Assembly: GCF_037042905.1 (NCBI RefSeq)
Contig: NC_087250.1
Span: forward strand, 24,492,001 to 24,556,000
DNA: 64,000 nucleotides
From: Lytechinus pictus
Lineage: Eukaryota
Reading direction: 5' to 3'
Part shown: one piece after another, positions 8,445 to 64,000 of the stretch
Layout: the number at the start of each line of letters is the position of its first letter
Position numbering within the stretch: the stretch's first letter is position 1
Made by a program: the position numbers and the translations under genes
Notes under the pieces: generated by a model
What the model was told of the DNA's origin: nothing
What the model saw: the letters and a program-made list of their open reading frames with translations, nothing else
The model's database searches: none

Positions 8445-8812
8445 GGTTACTCTGTTAGTTTGAAAATTAAGTATGGTTTGTTCGTCTGGAAATGAAATAG
8501 GGTTGTTAGTCTGAAAACAACTAACATTATAAAACCTCACTTCATCTTCAGACTATCGAACCTTCAGATTAACAAAGATTATTTCGTTTTCGGATGAACA
8601 AACCTTAGGAATAACAAGCCTTCATCTTAACAAACCTTTGGACTAGTACATTTTCAAAATATCAAGCATTCAGAGTATTTGAACCTTTGAATCACTACTG
8701 GTGATTGATGTCCATATCACTTTTTAATAATTGGAGATAACATCTGAGAGTGTAGGGTATATTTAAAAGTACATGCAGACATTGTAAATTGTGTACATTG
8801 TGAAATACTAAC

Positions 8813-11199
8813 CTTGATGTACAGTGATAACTCTTCTTTGGCCTTAGCAAGTGCTGGTCGCTTCTTAAGTGCTTTCTCTGAGGCCTTCTTGGTAAGTCTG
8901 ATTCCAACCACCGTGTCTATGAACAAGATCGCATTCAGGAACAGAAGTACTAACAGAGGCACACCAAAGGCATACAGATTTGCATCGCCACTGGACAACC
9001 AGCAAAGCTCATCATTGCCGTAGCTGAATCGCATATTAGTACAGCCACAAAGGTCAATGACCAGACAAGCACCTACGATCAAAGCTGGTACGCCCCAGGC
9101 ATAGAGGGAGTACCAAACGTAGAATCTCTGAGATTTACTGGCAATTCTAATCTTGACACGGGTGCCAAATGTGCGATTTAGATCTATGGCAAGGGCATTC
9201 ATCCAGAAGAAGATAGCGAGCCAGAAGAAATGGGTAATGGCTGCCACTGCTTTACAGAAGCCACCATGTTCCGTGCTCACTCCACTCACAAACACTAATA
9301 AAAATGTGAGTAAGAGGGCAACAGATAAGGTAAGGACCGATTTCCCAGCCAAGTTAAGAAGTTCAGGAAAGATGGCATAAGTTGTTATGATGATCAGTAC
9401 TGAAACAACAGACAGTGCATTTCCTATGGTGTTCATAGTGTCCAGGCCAGGAGGTAAATTACGTTCTTCATAAGCAGGAACTTTTAGGCAGTAAAGAGCT
9501 GAACCATCTTGACCTATTTGAAACTCATCATCTAACAGGACTGTATCCTTGCCGGTGAAATGGAGAAATACTTGTGACTGATTTTTCACAATCTCAAACT
9601 GACCCGCATCTAGTTTGACATATGTGTCACAAGCAAGTCTGGTGGTGTTGCCTGTGCAAACGTCACCGATGCTGGAGACACTCATGATATAAACTGCCCT
9701 TTCTCTGGTAAAGTTAATTCGGAATGGTAGCAGGGTGGGTTTGCCATAATCTGAAAATGTCCAGGAGTTGTGGGACTCACAGTCCCATCCTGCAGGAACA
9801 TCAATAAGCATTTCTATCATCGACAGGTTCCCGAATGAAGGCATATACAAAGTGGACGTTACGTTGGTTATGATACCTGCAGTACCCTGATAGAACTCCA
9901 AAGACGTTTGGGGTAGTGTAGTAAAGTTCATTTCAGTGTCAAAGCACACTTGACATATTGACTGACGAGAGTCATTTTCCGAATCACCAGTGGGGATACA
10001 GGAAATTTCAGGCACTGACACAACGGAAAGGGACGTCAGTGTGTCCAGTGGCGACTGAATGAGGACATTATTTACCGTTGCCAGAAGGTAGTCAGTGTCC
10101 AATGATGTCATATTCACTTCATCCTGGAGAGAATAGAACGTAACGCACAGCCCTCCTCTCTCATCTACCGGTAGACGTTCACACTGCTTTGTTGTCGTGT
10201 TGTATTCAAATCCTATGAAGCAAAAGAGCAATTGACATTTGCTTGACAGTGGGTCAAAGGCTTCATTTTCAGCACATGCCAATTCCTGGTTTCTGTCGAT
10301 AAAGTTAAAGAATTCTGCAAATGCAATCGCCGCACTCACTGTGTATATTAATGCGCCATCATATTTGACCGATTTGCACAATTCCCAATAGTCTGCACAT
10401 ACGTCAATGCCATTGCAATAAGCACAGTGTAGATTCTGGTAGATGGTACCATTGTGTACTATAGGTGCAAGGTATGATGGACACTTCGTAGGTTCTGAAG
10501 AACACGAAGTCACATCTACTCCAGAATAACAATGCCGAGCGTACATATCATTTGGTATATCTTCTGACGGCCTGAGTTGTTTAGAGCAGAAGTTTTCTAT
10601 CAGTTCTTTTTCTGTGTATTGGGTTTGTTTTCCATTCGAATCACTACTGCTACCAATAATACCAAGATCACAGTCCCATTTCCAACTCCAAAACTCGATA
10701 CCGGTAGAAATGTCGTGACACAATGCACAATACAAATTCCTAAAGTGACCGATGCTTTCAACAGTAACGGGTGTGTACAATTCTTCGTCGGGTTTCTGCG
10801 GGTTCTCACACTTGGTGCGGATTACGCTATGGGCAAGGACATAGGAGGGGCACTTAGAAATCATCTGGTAGTGAGAAAAGATGGTGATATTGCCTCCATA
10901 GTAGTAAGCAACACCAGAAACGGTAGCACATGAGAGATACGGGAGAAAGTCATCTTCCCAAGCCATCCTCTCAGGTATGGAGTCATAAACAGAGTCGGGG
11001 TATAAATGTCGTGTGTTCAACGTTCCAGCAGCAGACATATCTTCGGCATCTTTGCAACACTCATTATAAAGGACACATTGAGAATCGCATTTACATGGGC
11101 GCAGTATCCAGTGTCGTGAACACGAGAAAGGAGCTCTACGATGTCCACATGTTGGATCGAGCACGTTGTACTGGTGTTCTTCAGTGCACGTCAATGGTT
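8813..11199 (-). CDS. Class B (Methuselah-like/secretin-family) GPCR, coding exon 2: SMB-like domain, Cys-rich ectodomain, TM1-TM5
   Basis: Lies within the 825-aa ORF. SMB-like CKCDSQCVLYNECCKD; two NxxCAxC motifs (FRNLYCALC, YQNLHCAYC); class B TM motifs (CKAVAAITHFFWLAIFFWM, YSLYAWGVP, YGNDELCWL). Acceptor catacag| at 11200-11201 and donor AAG|gttagt at 8811-8812. Confidence 0.92.
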
Positions 11200-13979: not shown

Positions 13980-14315
13980 TGTAGTGGTTCTGACTCTCGC
14001 CTTGTAAAAAGAGGGTCGAGTGTTCGAATCCCACCGCGGTCTGGCGTCCTTTGGCAAGGCGTTAATCACACTTTGACACTCTCGACCCAGGTGCTAAATG
14101 GGTACCCGGTAGGATGTGAAAGTCATTGTAGCTTGTCCAGTACTGTGTGCGCCTCACTGGCGACTGACTAGAATACTCCCCAGGGAGTGGAGGATGTGCA
14201 TACATTGTGTGCGGATATGACTGATTGAATCCGACGACCGGGGTAAAAATATATCTGTAAAGCGCTTAGACACGTCGTTCCACTGTATTAAGCGCTATAT
14301 AAAAGCGGATTATTA
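13980..14315 (+). mobile_element. tRNA-derived SINE
   Basis: A-box-like TAGTGG and B-box GTTCGAATCC; core CTCGACCCAGGTGCTAAATGGGTACC; LINE-like tail AGCGCTATATAAAAG...TTATTA. Confidence 0.8.
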
Positions 14316-26269: not shown

Positions 26270-28420
26270 TAGCCTCTTGTGTATTTGAGAGGGACCCATT
26301 TCATTACTCTATATCATGTCCATGGTGGATTCCGTCTTTTATAATAGCATATTTAACTAGTTAAAGAAAAAGTCGTTGAGAAATTAATTCCAAATCGATG
26401 ATATTGATGTAATATTTTTAATAAGATCTAAAGCTTTCATTATCTCTTCTATTACAAGCTTAATTTGTCTTTTGCTTTCAGGGTTTCTCTGGATGACTGA
26501 TATTGTGCTGTGTACATCACTATAGCGTACCTACGGGGGGGGGGGGCAGAGGGGCAGTCTGCCCCCCCCCCCTGACGAGCCACCACCCATGCATGTATCC
26601 CTGCCCCCCTGACGAGCTTGAAATACCTTTTTGCCCCCCCCCCCCCTGACGAAAATCCTGGAAAATCCTAGGTACGCCAGTGGTGTACATGTATATCCAT
26701 TACTAAAAAGGTGATTTTAACTAGGTTTGTAATTTTCGACCCATTTCTATTTCACCATCTGTAACCAAGCCTTGAAAGAATTGTCCATCAGCAGTTATTG
26801 TTATTATATTTTGCTGTCCAATAGACAAAGAGGCACAATACGGCTTTCGACCAAGCTATTCTTTTTAACGGATAACTGATTAAATGCTATAGACGAAGGC
26901 CAAAATGACAGGAACGCTTTTTATTGATCTAAGATGTGCTTTTGATACTGTTGATGCATCTATTTTATTGAACAAATTAAAGAATGTTGTGATTTGCCAT
27001 TAGCATGGTTTGATTCATATTTAAATATAAGAGAAGCTAATTTGTTGCAATATAGAAAAGTACTTGCTGGATTTACCACGCTCAGAAATACCTAACCATC
27101 ATTGATGAAGCATAAATGAAGTTAATCAAACATAAATTGAATACTGTCGTGCAATTAAGGGGGGTAAAATGTTTGTCAAACTGTTTAAACTGTTTAAACA
27201 ATTACTGTAAGGTTCATTATTATAGTAAACAGCGTTGTATAAATTTTTTTTTTACTGTGAATATGTAATTCGAAAAATATCAGTGTCTAGCCTCTTGTGT
27301 ATTTGAGAGGGACCCATTTCATTACTCTATATCATGTCCATTGTGTATTCCGTCGTTTATATTTTTAATAGCATATTAACTAGTTAAAGAAAAAGTCGTT
27401 GAGAAATTAATTCCAAATCGATGATATTGATGTAATATTTTTAATAAGATCTAAAGCTTTCATTATCTCTTCTATTACAAGCTTAATTTATTTGTCTTTT
27501 GCTTTCAGGGTTCTCCAGTTGACTGATATTGTGCTAAGTACATGTATTTCCATTACTAAAAAGGTGATTTTAACTAGGTTTGTAATTTTTGACCCATTTC
27601 TATTTCACCGTCTGTAACCAAGCCTTGAAAGAATTGTCCATCAGCAGTTATTGTTATTATTTGCTGTCCAATAGACAAAGAGGCACAATACGTCTTTCGA
27701 CCAAGCTATTTTTTTTAACGGATAACTGATTAAATGCTATATAGACGAAGGCCAAAATGACAGGAACGCTTTTTATTGATCTAAGATGTGCTTTTGATAC
27801 TGTTGATGCATCTATTTTATTGAACAAATTAAAGAATATTGTGATTTGCCATTAGCATGGTTTGATTCATATTTAAATATAAGAGAAGCTAATTTGTTGC
27901 AATATAGAAAAGTACTTGCTGGATTTACCACGCTCAGAAATACCTAACCATCATTGATGAAGCATATAAGCAATGAAGTTATAATTAAACATAAATTGAA
28001 TACTGTCGTGAAATTAAGGGGGGTAAAATGTTTGTCAAATCGAAAAGTTGACTATAAATATTGCAAAAGAGGACAGAAAGACCTATTTAAACTGTAATAT
28101 ATAAATTCTGTACAGTATATATCTTATCTATAATGAATGAAGCTCGTAAATGGTTAATGTATTAAAGAATAACCTGACTGTTTAATGTTTTTAAAGATCT
28201 TAACATAAATTCTCGAATAGTGCTCATCATAATTTTTGGGCATAAATGCCAAAACAGACTATTGTAAGTGTGCTTTATGTTATGATCATGATGGTGGTTG
28301 CCATTAAATCTCAATATTAAGAATATTGAAAACCCTAAATAATTTAAACTCTCACAGGTAAAGAGATATTGTCTCAAAATTTCTTTGGTCGATCAACTGC
28401 ATGGGACAAATACCGATTCC
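26270..28420 (+). pseudogene. Decayed CR1/L2-type reverse-transcriptase fragments within a tandem duplication
   Basis: Frameshifted motifs RPISISPSV..LERIVHQQL and FIDL.xAFDTVD.SILLNKL each occur twice (about 26735-26980 and 27590-27835). Confidence 0.65.
26518..26682. mobile_element. Short hAT-like MITE
   Basis: 8-bp TSD GTGTACAT and TIR-like ends CACTATAGCGTACCTA/TAGGTACGCCAGTG. The empty site is visible in the duplicate copy near 27535. Confidence 0.8.
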
Positions 28421-28838: not shown

Positions 28839-29851
28839 CAGGGTGTATCGAAAAAAAGGAAACCCAAATTTGATCAATAATAATTTCAGAAATATAACTG
28901 TGGCAATAGTGGGGTTTATATCAACAGATAGATCAACCCATTGCCTTTCTTATGATAGCACTCTTAGCTCGTCACGCTCATGCATCACTGAACACCATTG
29001 TTCTGAAAAAGTGTTACAAAATGTAAAGTGGTTCACTCTCACGCATCTTTCATTTTCAAAATTAAACTTTTTTAGGATGAAGACAAAATGATGAAACATA
29101 TCAACAATTATTCATTTTCAAACTTTGTTTATTTTTCTTCACTTCTTGATCATTTCTTTTTTTAAATGTCTGTAACAAAAAAGAATAAGTCTCTGAACTC
29201 TTCAAGCTAATGCTGACGAAATGAGAAAGAAAAGGTGAGTGTGATGAAACAGCCTCAATGTTTTCCTCTGTCCTTGCTGACTTTCTTCTTCCTGATCTTC
29301 CTTTGTTGAGATTATGGCTCGTTCCTTCTGCTTCATACTTGCGCACATTAAGCCAAATTGTCTTCTTGGTAGGGGGGTCCCTATCCGGAAACATTAAATG
29401 AAATGATTCTTGAGTCTGGAGATAACTCCTTGTCTCATGATACCTTTTTACCAAGAAAGATCTCTGTGCAGTTGTGAGTTGCACCATGTTGGAAATCATG
29501 GAGTAGAAGCCTTGTTTAGTTAAATGAATAGACATTTCTAATTCATTCACCAAATTCATTTAATTAAAAGTCATTGGAATGCTTAACTAAAATCGTTTGA
29601 ATTGCTAATCATTTTGGGGCACATTCAAAGAAGCCACTCAATAGGCAATGAAAGTGAACCACCATGTCTTTTGTATAAATATTTCAAAAGGATGGTATTC
29701 AGTGAAGCGTGGACCCTGTAAGCTATGTTAGGTGTCATTAGAAAGGGAAAGAGTTGTAGTTTTTAGTGATATGACTATTATAATAAAAAAATCCATATTT
29801 TTCAAATTATACTCGATCAAACTTGGGTTTCCTTTTATTCGATACACCCTG
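28839..29851 (-). mobile_element. Internally deleted Tc1/mariner-superfamily transposon with transposase N-terminal HTH remnant
   Basis: TA|CAGGGTGTATCGAA...TTCGATACACCCTG|TA. From the ATG at 29487 it reads MVQLTTAQRSFLVKRY...PTKKTI...RSGRRKSARTEENIEAV (DUF4817/Tc3-like HTH). The catalytic domain is missing. Confidence 0.88.
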
Positions 29852-53793: not shown

Positions 53794-53906
53794 ACTTAAA
53801 CAAAAGTACTGAAGTCGAGCCGAGCACTTTGCTACTCAAACAACTTGTCTCCACGTTTTTCATTAAGTTCGCATTTTATTTAAATTCATAAACTGATTTT
53901 GAATAC

Positions 53907-54166
53907 CGTTCATGACAGTAACTTTCGACGCCTCATTCAAAGATTCCCAGACCATCTTCAATTTCTCATCCGGTTTATCCGATGATATTTGAGATGCTTT
54001 CCACATCGAGAGCATATGGATGTTAGCATCCTTCCTATTGTACAGGGATCGATGCTCGATGTGACGTAATTCCATATCGTCAAATCCCAGTTGCTTGCCA
54101 ATCTCATAGAATTTCTCTTTGTTAATGTGACGGGAAAATTGTAACAGTGTGCTGTCAGGAATCTCT
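53907..54166 (-). CDS. ZU5/UPA-DD gene exon: death domain 2
   Basis: Encodes EIPDSTLLQFSRHINKEKFYEIGKQLGFDDMELRHIE...IHMLSMWKASQ. atacag| and G|gtattc, 260 nt, phase 2-1. Confidence 0.85.
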
Positions 54167-54416
54167 CTGTATTATTGGTTGAAATTATGAATTCACTATT
54201 AGTAATTGAAGCCATCATAAGATACATTAATTTAAAAATAATACAATTGGCATTTATGCTCCATTACTGTAATTTAGAAGACATCTTAAATATTTAACTG
54301 ATTTACTACGAATTTCAGTGTTTTGAATAAAGTCGAAAAGCTCTTTCCATATCCATTTATTGCTGTCGTTTTTTTTTTCATTTGTATATGGTAAAACTTA
54401 AACTAAAGAAACTTAC

Positions 54417-54432: not shown

Positions 54433-54807
54433 CTTGATGAGCGTACACGGTTAAGAGAAGGTGATGACCAAGTAAATTTGCAGAAGAGAGAGAGAAAAAA
54501 AAAATCAGTGAATAAACTTAATCATTGCACGCTTGCTATTCACAAGCATGTATGTTGTTCCTCCTACAAACCTAAATGATCTTAAAAGTACAGATGAGAA
54601 AGTAAAGAATTACGCTGGTCAATTTAAGGAACTTTTTAGTTAAAAAATTGTCAGATATCCGAACTGTCTATTTTTTAACAATATTTGTGGACTTTAGAAA
54701 CGAAGGTGCAATTACAACATGAATCTGGAAGTATTTATTCTGAAACTAGTGAAAGAATATTACTTATCATTCTGAAACCAGTAAAATCCAAAAGCATTAA
54801 CTCAGAC

Positions 54808-55091
54808 CTGGGAGGGTTGTAGTATTTGATAAGCTGAATGATTCCATGAGTGTGATGAGAGCATTCTTTGCTGCTTGGGTAGATGTTTGTCTCCTTCTCC
54901 ATACCACCAGAATGTCATAGACTGCCTGTTCTCTGTCTTTGAATCTCATGTAGTCTACCCTATCCAACTCAGCTATGGTGAAACCAAGAGCTATGCCCAA
55001 ATCATAGAACTGATTTACGTCCATTGTCTGGGCTATTTTTAAGACGTCTATGTCAGATTGTAGGTCACTGTTCTTTACTTCTTCTTTTGTC
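54808..55091 (-). CDS. ZU5/UPA-DD gene exon: death domain 1
   Basis: Encodes DVLKIAQTMDVNQFYDLGIALGFTIAELDRVD...AVYDILVVWRRRQ, a death-fold pattern (LGxxLG, MLxxW). ttcag| and G|gtctga, 284 nt, phase 2-1. Confidence 0.85.
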
Positions 55092-55406
55092 CTGAAAGAT
55101 AGATTGAAATAATGCCTAGTTAAGATATCAAAGAATTGTTGCTCAATTATAATTGAATGCAAATTACATACTACTTTTAATGTGTTGCAATGCACTATTA
55201 TATGCATGACGTGACAACATAATTTTCAAAGCCTTCGCTGAAAAGTGGTCGTTTTGAGAACGTGACAGAAAGTATACGATGAAAATGATTTCGTAACACT
55301 TCCAACCGATTAACTGATATAAAATAAATAGTTTTTTCCCCAAGAAATACTTTTAGCCTACTTGAATAAAATAAAAATCTAACCATTTTAACCGATGGAG
55401 ACATGC

Positions 55407-57040: not shown

Positions 57041-57560
57041 TTAAAGGAGAATGAAACTCTTGGAGCAAGTTAGCTTTTGTGAAAGCAGAAAAATCAAAGA
57101 ATAAGATCAACAAAAGTTTGAGTAAAATAGGACTAGCAATAGAAGAGTTATGAGCATTTGAATGTCGAGATCACTAATGCTATGGAGATCCTCCCATTGG
57201 CAATGCGACCAAGATCTATGATGTCACAGATGAACAACTCTCCCCTTTTGGACACTGAAAATATACCCCAAAACATCTCTTTTTGCTCATTCTAATCATA
57301 TGACAAAAGATTCATCAATGATATAATGTTGTGAAACCTCTGTACTTGTCCTCTCGTAAAGAGAACACCTCACCTTGTGATAGACTATAAAAGTGAGAAT
57401 ATAAGTTAAATAAGTACTTAAGTAATGAAGGAGTTGTACGTGTGTGACATCACAGATCCTGGTCACATTGCCAATGGGAGGATCTACATTGCATCAAAAT
57501 TTCTTTGATTTTTCTCTTTGATATGGATTCAGCTGGTTTCAAGGGTTTCATTTTCCTTTC
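57041..57560. mobile_element. TTAA-type MITE, family C
   Basis: Same sequence as 35641-36232, with a deletion in the right arm. Confidence 0.85.
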
Positions 57561-57644
57561 AGAATCATAACGTTTTCAAAGCAGTTGTGAAATAGTAAAT
57601 GACCGAGAAGTATTCTGGAGCGATGTTGCTTACACGGGGACATC

Positions 57645-57768
57645 CCGATAGACCGCGGGTCCGATAGACCGCGGGTCCGTTAGACCGCGGGTACGATAGA
57701 CCGCGGGTCCGATAGACCGCGGGTCCGATAGTCCGCGGGTCCGATAGACCACGGGTCCGATAGTCCGC
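57645..57768 (+). repeat. 16-bp minisatellite (CCGATAGACCGCGGGT), about 7.5 copies
   Basis: Directly visible tandem array. Confidence 0.9.
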
Positions 57769-57914
57769 AGTGTGTGTAAAATTATGATCAGATATATCAA
57801 ATGTCATCGAGAGGTCCAAAGGTCAAATGATACGAGGCCATGGGGTTCTATCAGGTGCGGATCCATGGAGGGCCTAGGGGGAACTGCCTCACCCCCTCCC
57901 CCCACCCCCAGCTC

Positions 57915-61210: not shown

Positions 61211-62224
61211 TCATTATTTATTTAGGCCTTGTGAGAATTTAAGAATTTAAGAATGAAATATCATATTTTCTTTGACGTCTACCCCCTCCCATTTCATTTA
61301 TTTTTTTTAACTTGGTGCCCTCGCCACCCATCCCCCCCCCCCGTGCACCCATGCTGAATAAATACGCCAGCAGCATAGAATATACCCTACTGAAGGTGTT
61401 AATTACTTCTTCCGGTAAACAATAGGGAAGCGGAAATTGGTTAATTAGTGTGACTTCCGGTGACAATAAGGAAGCGGATCTTCGTTAATAAGACATCATT
61501 CCGATGACATCCTGTAAACAATAGGAATGTGGATATTCGTTAATGATGCATCCTCCCAGTGTCTTCCTTTATCCGGAAGCACATTCTTTTGTTCTAAAAT
61601 CATTCATGGAGCAAGGGGGGGGGTCACTGAGCCATATACCTGGGGATCTGGGGATTAGCCACTTGGTTTCCTTGAGCAGGATAATCAGACATGTATTTGT
61701 CTGTGAAGGTCTGAGTATATACAATATGATCAATGAATTACATTCTGATATTTCTTTGGACACACCCACCTTATTAGATAGAACCTGATTGGTCATTTGG
61801 TTTGACGATTTTAGAGTGGAATATATGTCAGTGATAAAGGGCATGATGCGCATGCATTCCTTTTCACTTTTAGACCAGTTTTTTTCCCTGTTTTTCATTT
61901 TTATTCTTGTTCTATATTAGTGATTCAATTCAATTGCTGGTATATTATTCTTGATTTTATTCGATAAAATAATCTACATATTGTTTCATACTTCAGATTT
62001 GAATTTAGTTTGTTTGGTTCATTATTATAAAGTAGACGCCCTCTCCCCCCCCCCCCCCCGCTGTTTTGTCATTACCACTTGGTAGTTGCGTTATGTGCTA
62101 TCTACAAACCATTCCTATTTATTGGGGAGGGTGTGGTAGATGGGGTAGGGTGGAACTGGTGGGTCTATTTAAAGATTGATAGCTGAGATGTTGATGTATT
62201 TCAGATTTTGTATAATAACATAAT

Positions 62225-62490
62225 TCAATAATGATAACAATAATAGTTACATTTATGTAGCGCTTCATACGTTGGTTTCTAAGCATTTTACATATGTCAT
62301 TATTATCACCCTGGTCATAGGATCCACCACTGTTCCACACACAAAGTGCACCATCTCCACTCTCTGTGAGCATCCTGGCCAGGCAACCATTTATCGGTTC
62401 ACACATGCCAAGCTAATCGCATTGACGTTCACATCCTATCGCGTACCCATTTAACACCTGGGTCGAGAATTGCAAAGTGTGGATTGTATG
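62225..62490 (-). mobile_element. SINE, 5'-truncated, same core family
   Basis: GTACCCATTTAACACCTGGGTCGAG is the inverse of the core at about 14080. The AGCGCTACATAAAT plus (TTA)-like tail is present. Confidence 0.7.
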
Positions 62491-62702
62491 TAGCTAGATA
62501 GTTCTACTTGTGAAAATTTGAAGTTTCCACCCTTGGTAGACGTAGGTACTGCAATATCAAACAAATGTACAACATAATTAAAGTGAACAGTATTTTTTTT
62601 TTCAATGCACATAAACATACAGACATTACAATCATCATTACTGTCAGTATTTTCTTTCACAGAGTTCGTTTATGATCAATCTGAATCTTATGCATCGTTG
62701 CC

Positions 62703-63389
62703 TCACTTGCCACCATCTTCGGTATCATCTGTTTCTCCTTCACTGCTGTCTTCATCCTGGTATTGGAATAATCCCTCAAATTTTGTCTTATGTCTGGCTA
62801 CTACACGGCGAATGGCTTTCCACTTCTTCATGCCATTTTCTACTTTCTTCATGATGTCAGAAAGGATTTCGTAATTGGTGTCATCATCTTCAAGGTACAA
62901 GCTCTGTCGCAAGAAGTTAGAGTAGTGGTCAAAGAAGATTCGTTTAACAGCCCATAGAACTTTCACATGGGCTTTTTCTTTAGCATCATTATCACTCATA
63001 CCATTGGAGATATACTTTTTGTATTTTTCATTCCTCGACTCCTCAGTTGCTATCATGGCCATTTCTAACCATTCATGGTAAGCCTGGTTATCTTCAAGTT
63101 CTCCTGTCTCGTCCATCTCTGAATTCATTGATTCTTCCTCTCCTCCACTTTCCGAGTCCTCGGATGGTGCATTGCCGTCATGGATAGCCTCCGCAACTCG
63201 GTGCTTTTTAGATGGAGGTTCATACTGAGAATCATCTTCGCTATCCTCTTTTTCGTATTCAGTGTCTTCGTGGTCTTCCATTTTGGGGTGTACAATCTGT
63301 TCGTGCCTCTTGAGATCAAATTTTCGACCATATGATTTATTACACAGTGAACAACTGTAGCGCTTGGACATGAAACTATTCATGTTCAT
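62703..63389 (-). CDS. Intronless C2H2 zinc-finger, acidic, helical C-terminal protein (228 aa); possibly Maverick/Polinton- or virus-associated
   Basis: YSCSLCNKSYGRKFDLKRHEQIVH is a C2H2 finger, followed by an acidic tract with an NLS-like PPSKKHR and a charged helical C-terminus. The start was moved from the GTG at 63446 to the first ATG. The mobile-element association is from recollection only. Confidence 0.75.
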   Translation of the reverse strand: MNMNSFMSKRYSCSLCNKSYGRKFDLKRHEQIVHPKMEDHEDTEYEKEDSEDDSQYEPPSKKHRVAEAIHDGNAPSEDSESGGEEESMNSEMDETGELEDNQAYHEWLEMAMIATEESRNEKYKKYISNGMSDNDAKEKAHVKVLWAVKRIFFDHYSNFLRQSLYLEDDDTNYEILSDIMKKVENGMKKWKAIRRVVARHKTKFEGLFQYQDEDSSEGETDDTEDGGK

Positions 63390-63443
63390 TCGTTGAAGTT
63401 CCGTTTGCAAATGACACAGAGCAACTGAATCTTCATACTTGTA

Positions 63444-63675
63444 CACTCTAAATTACAGGGATTTAAAACAAGTCCACATGGACTGTAGTTAGGGACCAAT
63501 CGAATTCCGGATTTAGTTTGAATCCTTAAGATTCATTTTTAAATCTCGAAAGATTTAAATTTAAATCATTTGAGATATAAATTTAAGTCGTTAGGATTAA
63601 AACTAAATTCAGAAATCGATTGGTCCCTAGCTACAGTCCATCTGGACTTATTTTAAATCCCTGTAATTTAGAGTG
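63444..63675. mobile_element. Palindromic MITE with CACTCTAAA termini and TA duplication (CACTA/EnSpm-like)
   Basis: ta|cactctaaattacaggg...ccctgtaatttagagtg|ta. It is absent from the opposite palindrome arm (empty site ctgTAcaag at 63901-63909). Confidence 0.8.
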
Positions 63676-63957
63676 TACAGATCGCATTGCCGCAAATAAA
63701 CATGGCGTTTACGCCGTAACGCCGTTGACGGCGCTCGGGATGCATTGATACGGCGTAAACGCCGTTTTTATTTGCGGCAATGCGATCTGTACGAGTCTGA
63801 AGATTCAGTTGCTCTTTGACGCCGTAGCAATGCATCCCGAGCGCCGTCAACGGCGTTACGGCGTAAACGCCGCTTTTATTTTTATTTGCGGCAATGCGAT
63901 CTGTACAAGTATGAAGATTCAGTTGCTCTGTGTCATTTGCAAACGGAACTTCAACGA

Positions 63958-64000
63958 ATGAACATGAATAGTTTCATGTCCAAGCGCTACAGTTGTTCAC
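63958..64000 (+). CDS. Start of an inverted second copy of the zinc-finger ORF (runs off the window)
   Basis: 63902-64000 is the reverse complement of about 63347-63445 and reads MNMNSFMSKRYSCS. Confidence 0.7.
   Translation, partial: MNMNSFMSKRYSCS

Follow-up and report, generated by a model that had tools for sequence, protein, structure and literature searches.

Based on our analysis, we propose that a mirror-symmetric locus at the right edge of a 64,000-nt stretch of the Lytechinus pictus genome (contig NC_087250.1, positions 24,492,001 to 24,556,000; hereafter the window, in whose own coordinates all positions are given) is the centre of a palindromic, non-autonomous derivative of a Polinton/Maverick element that is moved by the enzymes of a helper. 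We hold this proposal with slightly better than even confidence. It is carried by the mirror itself, by the Polinton kinship of the zinc-finger gene P0001 that lies in its arms, by the multi-copy state of the gene arm and by a similar palindrome upstream of the gene in a distant relative, locus L001.

Mirror structure of the centre

Read along the plus strand, the locus comprises the left gene and its leader in inverted orientation, a MITE (miniature inverted-repeat transposable element) that stands between this gene and the centre, an inverted promoter unit, the 30-nt top of a hairpin, and a direct copy of the promoter unit, after which come the hairpin top, the promoter unit and the leader of the right gene with its first 14 codons. 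The original prediction, made from the letters of the locus, had described a zinc-finger open reading frame (ORF) duplicated head to head around a branched palindromic centre. Its outer mirror is exact: 63347-63445 and 63902-64000 form an inverted repeat with 99 of 99 positions identical, the longest perfect one in the window with arms within 3 kb (the runner-up measures 59 nt). The inner mirror also holds, 63674-63703 pairing with 63878-63907 (97%) and 63694-63759 with 63816-63881 (92%); apart from the MITE, the arms are set apart by an insertion of 6 nt on the right side and by two more changes. The partial third copy was found as claimed, 63749-63818 (plus strand) being a direct copy of 63857-63932 (88%, one 6-nt gap) that doubles as the right stem of the left hairpin, and so were the small hairpins, CGCCGTTGACGGCG at 63720-63733 and GGCGTAAACGCC at 63752 and 63860, the latter within the right arm upstream unit (63819-63957, plus strand) that holds the hairpin top, GGCGTAAACGCC and the leader. 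Duplication of the ORF can be followed for the first 14 codons of the mirror copy (63958-63999, 14/14 identical; feature 63958-64000, plus strand), which continues past the window end; the rest of the right-hand gene lies outside the window.

The left hairpin (63675-63792) consists of a 44-bp stem and the 30-nt top (-56.5 kcal/mol, z -13.9), and its stem is extended in register by 31 bp more (63415-63445 with 63788-63818) on the far side of the MITE. The whole centre, 63670-63935, folds at -115.4 kcal/mol (z -20), with 0 of 200 shuffles as good. Branching is modest, with one firm 5-bp side arm and a second, weak arm of 2-3 bp. The CpG observed/expected ratio of 63680-63900 is 2.04 as against 0.81 for the window. 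An Rfam scan gave eight matches, all to long-hairpin microRNA models and below the gathering score, which we take as chance matches on hairpins. The leader of the left gene (63390-63443, minus strand) is identical to that of the right arm and carries an initiator-like GTCATTT together with TCAGTT. The latter, put forward in the original prediction as a signal about 40 bp before each ATG, is indeed found 39 nt ahead of the right ATG. What precedes the gene start in the P0001 locus and in its relatives L001 and L002 alike, however, is GTCATTT, located 26 nt upstream of the right ATG. At 63940-63948 the in-frame reading of the leader is HLQ, as it is for the N-terminal extensions of the related proteins P0004 and P0009; conservation of the TCATTTGCAA stretch is therefore probably at the DNA level.

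As predicted, the MITE (63444-63675) is seen in the left arm and not in the right. It is assigned to this class by its length of 232 bp with no ORF, its 120-nt arms that are 87% complementary (ends CACTCT...AGAGTG), a TA on both sides and its very high copy depth, the summed contig depth being 29,000-179,000 in sequencing runs X3 and X6, where loose ends lie behind 63677/63678. These belong to a set of four runs assembled to contigs, including X10 and X12; X12 is labelled as another organism, and X10 is only guessed to be RNA, its contig being counted here as DNA-level evidence. Contigs that span the junction of the third copy with the right arm are present in X10 (from 63812), X12 (from 63788) and X6 (from 63764). 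That of X10 is a 1080-nt, MITE-free contig leading from 63812 through the gene to 62457, and in X12 63788-63938 is joined to the gene. As three runs show this junction independently of one another, the third copy is no isolated scar; to judge from the contigs, it belongs to the normal upstream region of the family and did not result from the head-to-head junction. In X12, a contig departs from the gene at 63073 into other sequence and represents a copy interrupted inside the ORF.

A mis-assembly or a fold-back read artefact would agree with the finding that 63719-63790, within the left hairpin, is bridged by no listed contig in any of the four runs. A fold-back read would, however, have copied the MITE, the 6-nt insertion and the point changes by which the arms differ, and the 63812-63830 junction recurs in independent runs. 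We consider an artefact very improbable; the mirror is a genuine structure.

The gene arm exists in multiple copies. In X6 an 874-nt contig of depth 606, about 4% different from the window, covers 62458-63324, including the junction with an adjoining short interspersed nuclear element (SINE), and is accompanied by variant contigs of the arm, whereas apparently single-locus contigs have a depth of 47-68; depth is not a true copy number. The SINE-to-arm junction is carried by contigs of X6, X10 and X12. At 63355, 63935 and 63950 the copies in X3 and X6 differ where the two arms of the locus are identical over 99/99 positions, so that these arms have been copied or converted locally, which fits fold-back copying or local conversion. 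The same pattern would be produced if the palindrome were not a mobile unit at all and one dispersed Polinton-derived gene copy had been duplicated in inverted orientation within the chromosome by a template switch at a short inverted repeat. The short inverted repeats of the centre suit models of this kind, as far as these are set out in the available text of PMC4689423, yet the layout of L001 and the paired genes of other subfamilies (see below) would then require repeated accidents, and we regard local duplication as improbable.

The zinc-finger gene and its relatives

The ORF of P0001 (62703-63389, minus strand) is intact and encodes 228 aa, with a C2H2 finger at 11-34, an acidic linker bearing a basic patch that resembles a nuclear localization signal, a six-helix domain at about 96-212 and an acidic tail. 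The finger matches zf-C2H2 at E 2.4e-4, weaker than the Pfam cut-off, and the helical domain is modelled with a pLDDT of 96.5 (predicted structure). All three listed insertions or deletions inside the ORF are multiples of three, while outside it (62512-63935) six of the seven listed are not. A word search gave 12 relatives at 51-71% and a full scan 117 representatives, almost none of them named; by profile search the clade holds at least 60 clusters at E 1e-15. When the helical domain was used as query, the 117 matches included the distant members P0081 (E 1.9e-9) and P0131 and P0133 (E 3-5e-4), in all of which the domain is located after ATPase sequence; in P0133 the ATPase reaches Pox_A32 above the cut-off. 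A profile built from 13 stand-alone sequences scores the ATPase-linked members at 52-83 bits, and one gene model, P0141 from Mya arenaria (named YMD3-like in the source), unites finger, A32-like ATPase, P0001-type domain and chromodomain. In view of the order of A32 ATPase plus chromodomain, and of the ATPase and integrase-type content of Polintons (available text of PMC6431247 and PMC8502044), we infer from the protein sequences that this order reflects a Polinton block.

A domain tree of 60 rows, with 17 of 77 rows left out as near-duplicates or partial, places P0001 and L001 in one branch of 45 rows (support 90/91, not starred) that contains 0 of 4 ATPase-fused rows. By these sequence comparisons, the P0001 gene is related to Polinton/Maverick genes and belongs to a stand-alone clade. 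The Maverick-like descent offered in the original prediction is thereby upheld through the kinship of the domain with ATPase-fused proteins. P0001, A1, P0133 and the centre motif gave no match in viral contigs and A1 none in genome contigs; P0001 had no match in PHROGs and no usable match in the ESM Atlas. A fold search with the helical domain found no BFVD match at E 0.001, and the best Z in the PDB set, 7.1 over 62 residues, reflects a common helix arrangement, which is not proof of a new fold. One relative, P0108, joins the N-terminal half of a P0001-like protein to ubiquitin-like domains, either by capture or by a gene-model fusion.

What do the relatives reveal about the layout? In L001, with 42% protein identity, a palindrome of 324 bp (CpG observed/expected 1.96) lies upstream of the gene and stops 75 nt short of the ATG. 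Its perfect 94-nt arm starts at the first base of the contig, off which the palindrome runs, while the side toward the gene bears extra direct repeats, so that L001 shows the asymmetry seen at the P0001 locus. The word CAATGCG, considered as a link between the two centres, was rejected as within chance. In L002, a tandem array of TGCAC-rich 30-bp units, framed by a pair of 48-nt direct repeats, occupies 736-1024 directly upstream of the broken gene.

The end of the L001 palindrome at a contig end, the 44-bp stem with its branched top, the 31 bp more beyond the MITE and the abrupt stop at 63818 are all features that would be expected if the locus were the head-to-head junction of a hairpin-ended linear replicon of the parvovirus-like, rolling-hairpin kind, with one end whole and one truncated. 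The original prediction pointed this way, suspecting a hairpin end or concatemer junction of an integrated DNA virus or Maverick-like element, and proposed a check for flip/flop variants. No HUH Rep or NS1 was found in the parts of the window that were scanned (four ATG ORFs and 30 of 105 stop-to-stop frames of at least 80 aa), and no flip/flop pair is seen at the locus itself, where both hairpin tops are oriented alike relative to their own genes. Moreover, the supposed junction is common to three runs under two organism labels. A rolling-hairpin replicon thus appears rather unlikely.

Gene pairs provide a further comparison. Among 19 listed family members on contigs longer than 10 kb, 4 of 15 contig sizes occur twice, and three of these four cases are overlapping, near-identical proteins from two other subfamilies: P0164/P0200 (99%), P0237/P0239 (one difference) and P0202/P0212. 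P0204/P0207, on an equal-sized contig and without overlap, was dropped from the count as possibly one broken gene. P0016 and P0014 have consecutive accessions and are 94% identical. The contigs of 49 of 60 relatives are at most 2.5 kb, which was not used as evidence, metagenome contigs being short anyway.

In the main rival explanation, a full-size Polinton normally houses gene and hairpin in its long terminal inverted repeats (about 2 kb), and the locus is a one-off internal deletion that joined the repeats. Butterfly polintons, as presented in the available part of 10.1101/2025.02.07.637071, indeed have gene-containing terminal inverted repeats of about 2 kb, two copies per insertion; the paired genes sit on contigs of 22-45 kb; and one contig of X6, record 31, continues upstream of 63764 into 592 letters of other sequence, which is what an interior would look like. 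The depth of this contig is only 46.7, however, far under the 606 of the arm, and in L001, at 42% protein identity, a palindrome in the corresponding position extends beyond its contig. We rate a one-off deletion as unlikely, although it deserves more weight than the other alternatives.

Extent of the element and its surroundings

The left arm probably starts near 61369, where a candidate outer arm (61369-62210, plus strand) opens with AGCAGC directly behind the apparent end of a host GC-box repeat; its left flank is TACGCC. AGCAGC has four occurrences on the plus strand of the window. For comparison, vertebrate Mavericks end in (AGT)2, (AG)3 or (AC)3A with 6-bp duplications (available text of PMC8097293). 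The roughly 840 nt left of the SINE have no other copy in the window, and subterminal 44-bp repeats lie at 61409-61571. These repeats are rich in TTCCG and CGGAA, with three and two occurrences in 252 nt, where 0.17 and 0.11 would be expected, and resemble ETS-type sites. Extrapolating by symmetry from the candidate left end places the right end near 65978, beyond the window, and predicts an element of about 4.6 kb, a palindrome from 61369 to about 65978.

The SINE (62211-62486, minus strand) is truncated at its 5' end and lacks the tRNA-like head. A second copy at 14067-14303 runs on past the truncation point of the arm SINE, and other copies continue ACGCCTTGCC behind 62485/62486. TTGTAT flanks on both sides suggest a short target duplication; as the SINE is headless and flanked in this way, it was inserted into the arm, and the reverse order, insertion of the element into the SINE, was rejected on the same grounds.

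The remainder of the window is occupied by an adhesion G protein-coupled receptor (GPCR), Death domains and host repeats. The receptor, a single-exon ORF of 773 aa (8717-11038, minus strand), matches 7tm_2 (E 5.7e-22) and begins with a long N-terminal region rich in cysteine, which makes it an adhesion-type GPCR. A Death-domain frame (53866-54171, minus strand, E 7.8e-5) and a similar-looking ORF without Pfam match (54797-55207, minus strand) are probably exons of a host immune-type gene. A DUF4817 helix-turn-helix at 29101-29559 (minus strand, E 7.4e-8) is likely a transposase remnant, and 57177-57494 and 57629-57800 contain an inverted repeat of 64 nt whose copies stand 190 nt apart, behind which come eight GC-rich tandem units of 16 bp and a purine tract of 700 nt.

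Origin of the palindrome and comparison with known systems

Several observations weigh against a palindromic Polinton derivative. The candidate end AGCAGC resembles the three published vertebrate motifs but is identical to none of them, and it may represent a worn terminus of the host repeat next to it (TACGCCAGTG at 26673). The synonymous excess in the gene is weak, 5 of 12 among the changes listed (p 0.049). Only L001 is palindromic among the two relatives' loci with DNA, L002 having direct 30-bp repeats and a broken gene, and words common to the P0001 and L001 centres are not above chance (p 0.2-0.4). The pairs are deduced from equal-sized contigs and show pairing at most; contigs of 22-45 kb would also accommodate a complete Polinton bearing the gene in each of its terminal repeats. 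To these are added the unbridged left hairpin and record 31, whose unrelated upstream letters imply at least one copy without the inverted arm. As a test for an inverted repeat of the whole element, the mirror is seen over 63347-64000 and L001 fits, whereas this X6 copy does not.

How would a palindromic Polinton derivative work? In each arm, the CpG-rich hairpin repeats of the centre would be followed by one zinc-finger gene, facing outward, and then by a Polinton-type end. The palindrome may have originated when a protein-primed polymerase turned back at a hairpin (snap-back), giving a molecule with two like ends that could be copied and inserted by the polymerase and integrase of a helper Polinton. 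The centre would then represent both the turn-around point and the promoter for the two genes. The snap-back origin is proposed by analogy with the snap-back genomes of adeno-associated virus. Palindromic defective genomes of adenovirus, phi29 and yeast killer plasmids, which likewise have two like ends and arise anew in each infection, offer a further parallel. More speculatively, the protein, as a stand-alone version of the module linked to the packaging ATPase, might bias packaging or transcription of the helper toward the element. A broader version of this model is tentative and, in our estimate, clearly less probable than the proposal for the locus itself: an old, widespread lineage of self-complementary polintovirus satellites, each being a small palindrome in which Polinton ends are retained along with two copies of a dedicated zinc-finger gene, the freed and diverged ATPase-linked module, which redirects the packaging or gene control of the helper. 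For Polintons in animals, free particles and replication have so far been deduced from sequence. As a palindromic parasite whose gene is intact and conserved, such an element would preserve, like a fossil, the traces of strand-displacement replication and snap-back, and the P0001 clade would offer a marker for finding such elements across invertebrate genomes and for addressing the co-evolution of satellite and helper.

By the features testable in the window, the locus is not an autonomous Polinton, yet it is built from Polinton parts. In the four ATG ORFs and the 30 of 105 stop-to-stop frames scanned there was no Pfam match to a protein-primed DNA polymerase (pPolB) or a retroviral-like integrase, and tblastn of the window with family proteins, ATPase fusions included, gave no match outside the gene. 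The locus shares with Polinton/Maverick elements, including polintoviruses and adintoviruses (as described in the available text of PMC8097293, PMC6431247, 10.1101/2023.08.22.554363 and PMC8502044), a gene homologous to a module fused to or following an A32-like packaging ATPase, and its candidate end begins with AG and a repeated triplet. It differs in that no pPolB, integrase, protease or capsid gene was seen in the window, in that the arms meet at a hairpin centre, and in its predicted size of 4.6 kb against 13-25 kb, the typical size given alongside the terminal repeat range in the accessible part of 10.1101/2023.08.22.554363. Butterfly polintons (10.1101/2025.02.07.637071, available part) resemble it in having arms of about 2 kb with a gene copy in each, but they are full-length elements whose repeats contain core genes (hexon, adenain) and whose interior is large, whereas the interior here is about 60 nt and the gene accessory. 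The snap-back subgenomes of adeno-associated virus, as far as 10.1101/2020.10.20.346957 covers them in its available text, are likewise self-complementary defective genomes with two like ends, a form that could raise the dose of one viral gene; unlike the locus, which is integrated, multi-copy and equipped with a gene from a separate, diverged clade, they arise anew in each infection. Our literature searches gave no description of palindromic Polinton satellites, although subscription papers, Repbase or bioRxiv supplements may describe non-autonomous Polintons of such form. The contribution of the locus is an intact marker gene that has a clade to itself, together with a layout that is matched at 42% identity. 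If the proposed satellite lineage is true, Polintons would have satellites, as phages and giant viruses do, and the lineage would be an animal counterpart of phage satellites such as the phage-inducible chromosomal islands (PICIs), with a family marker gene.
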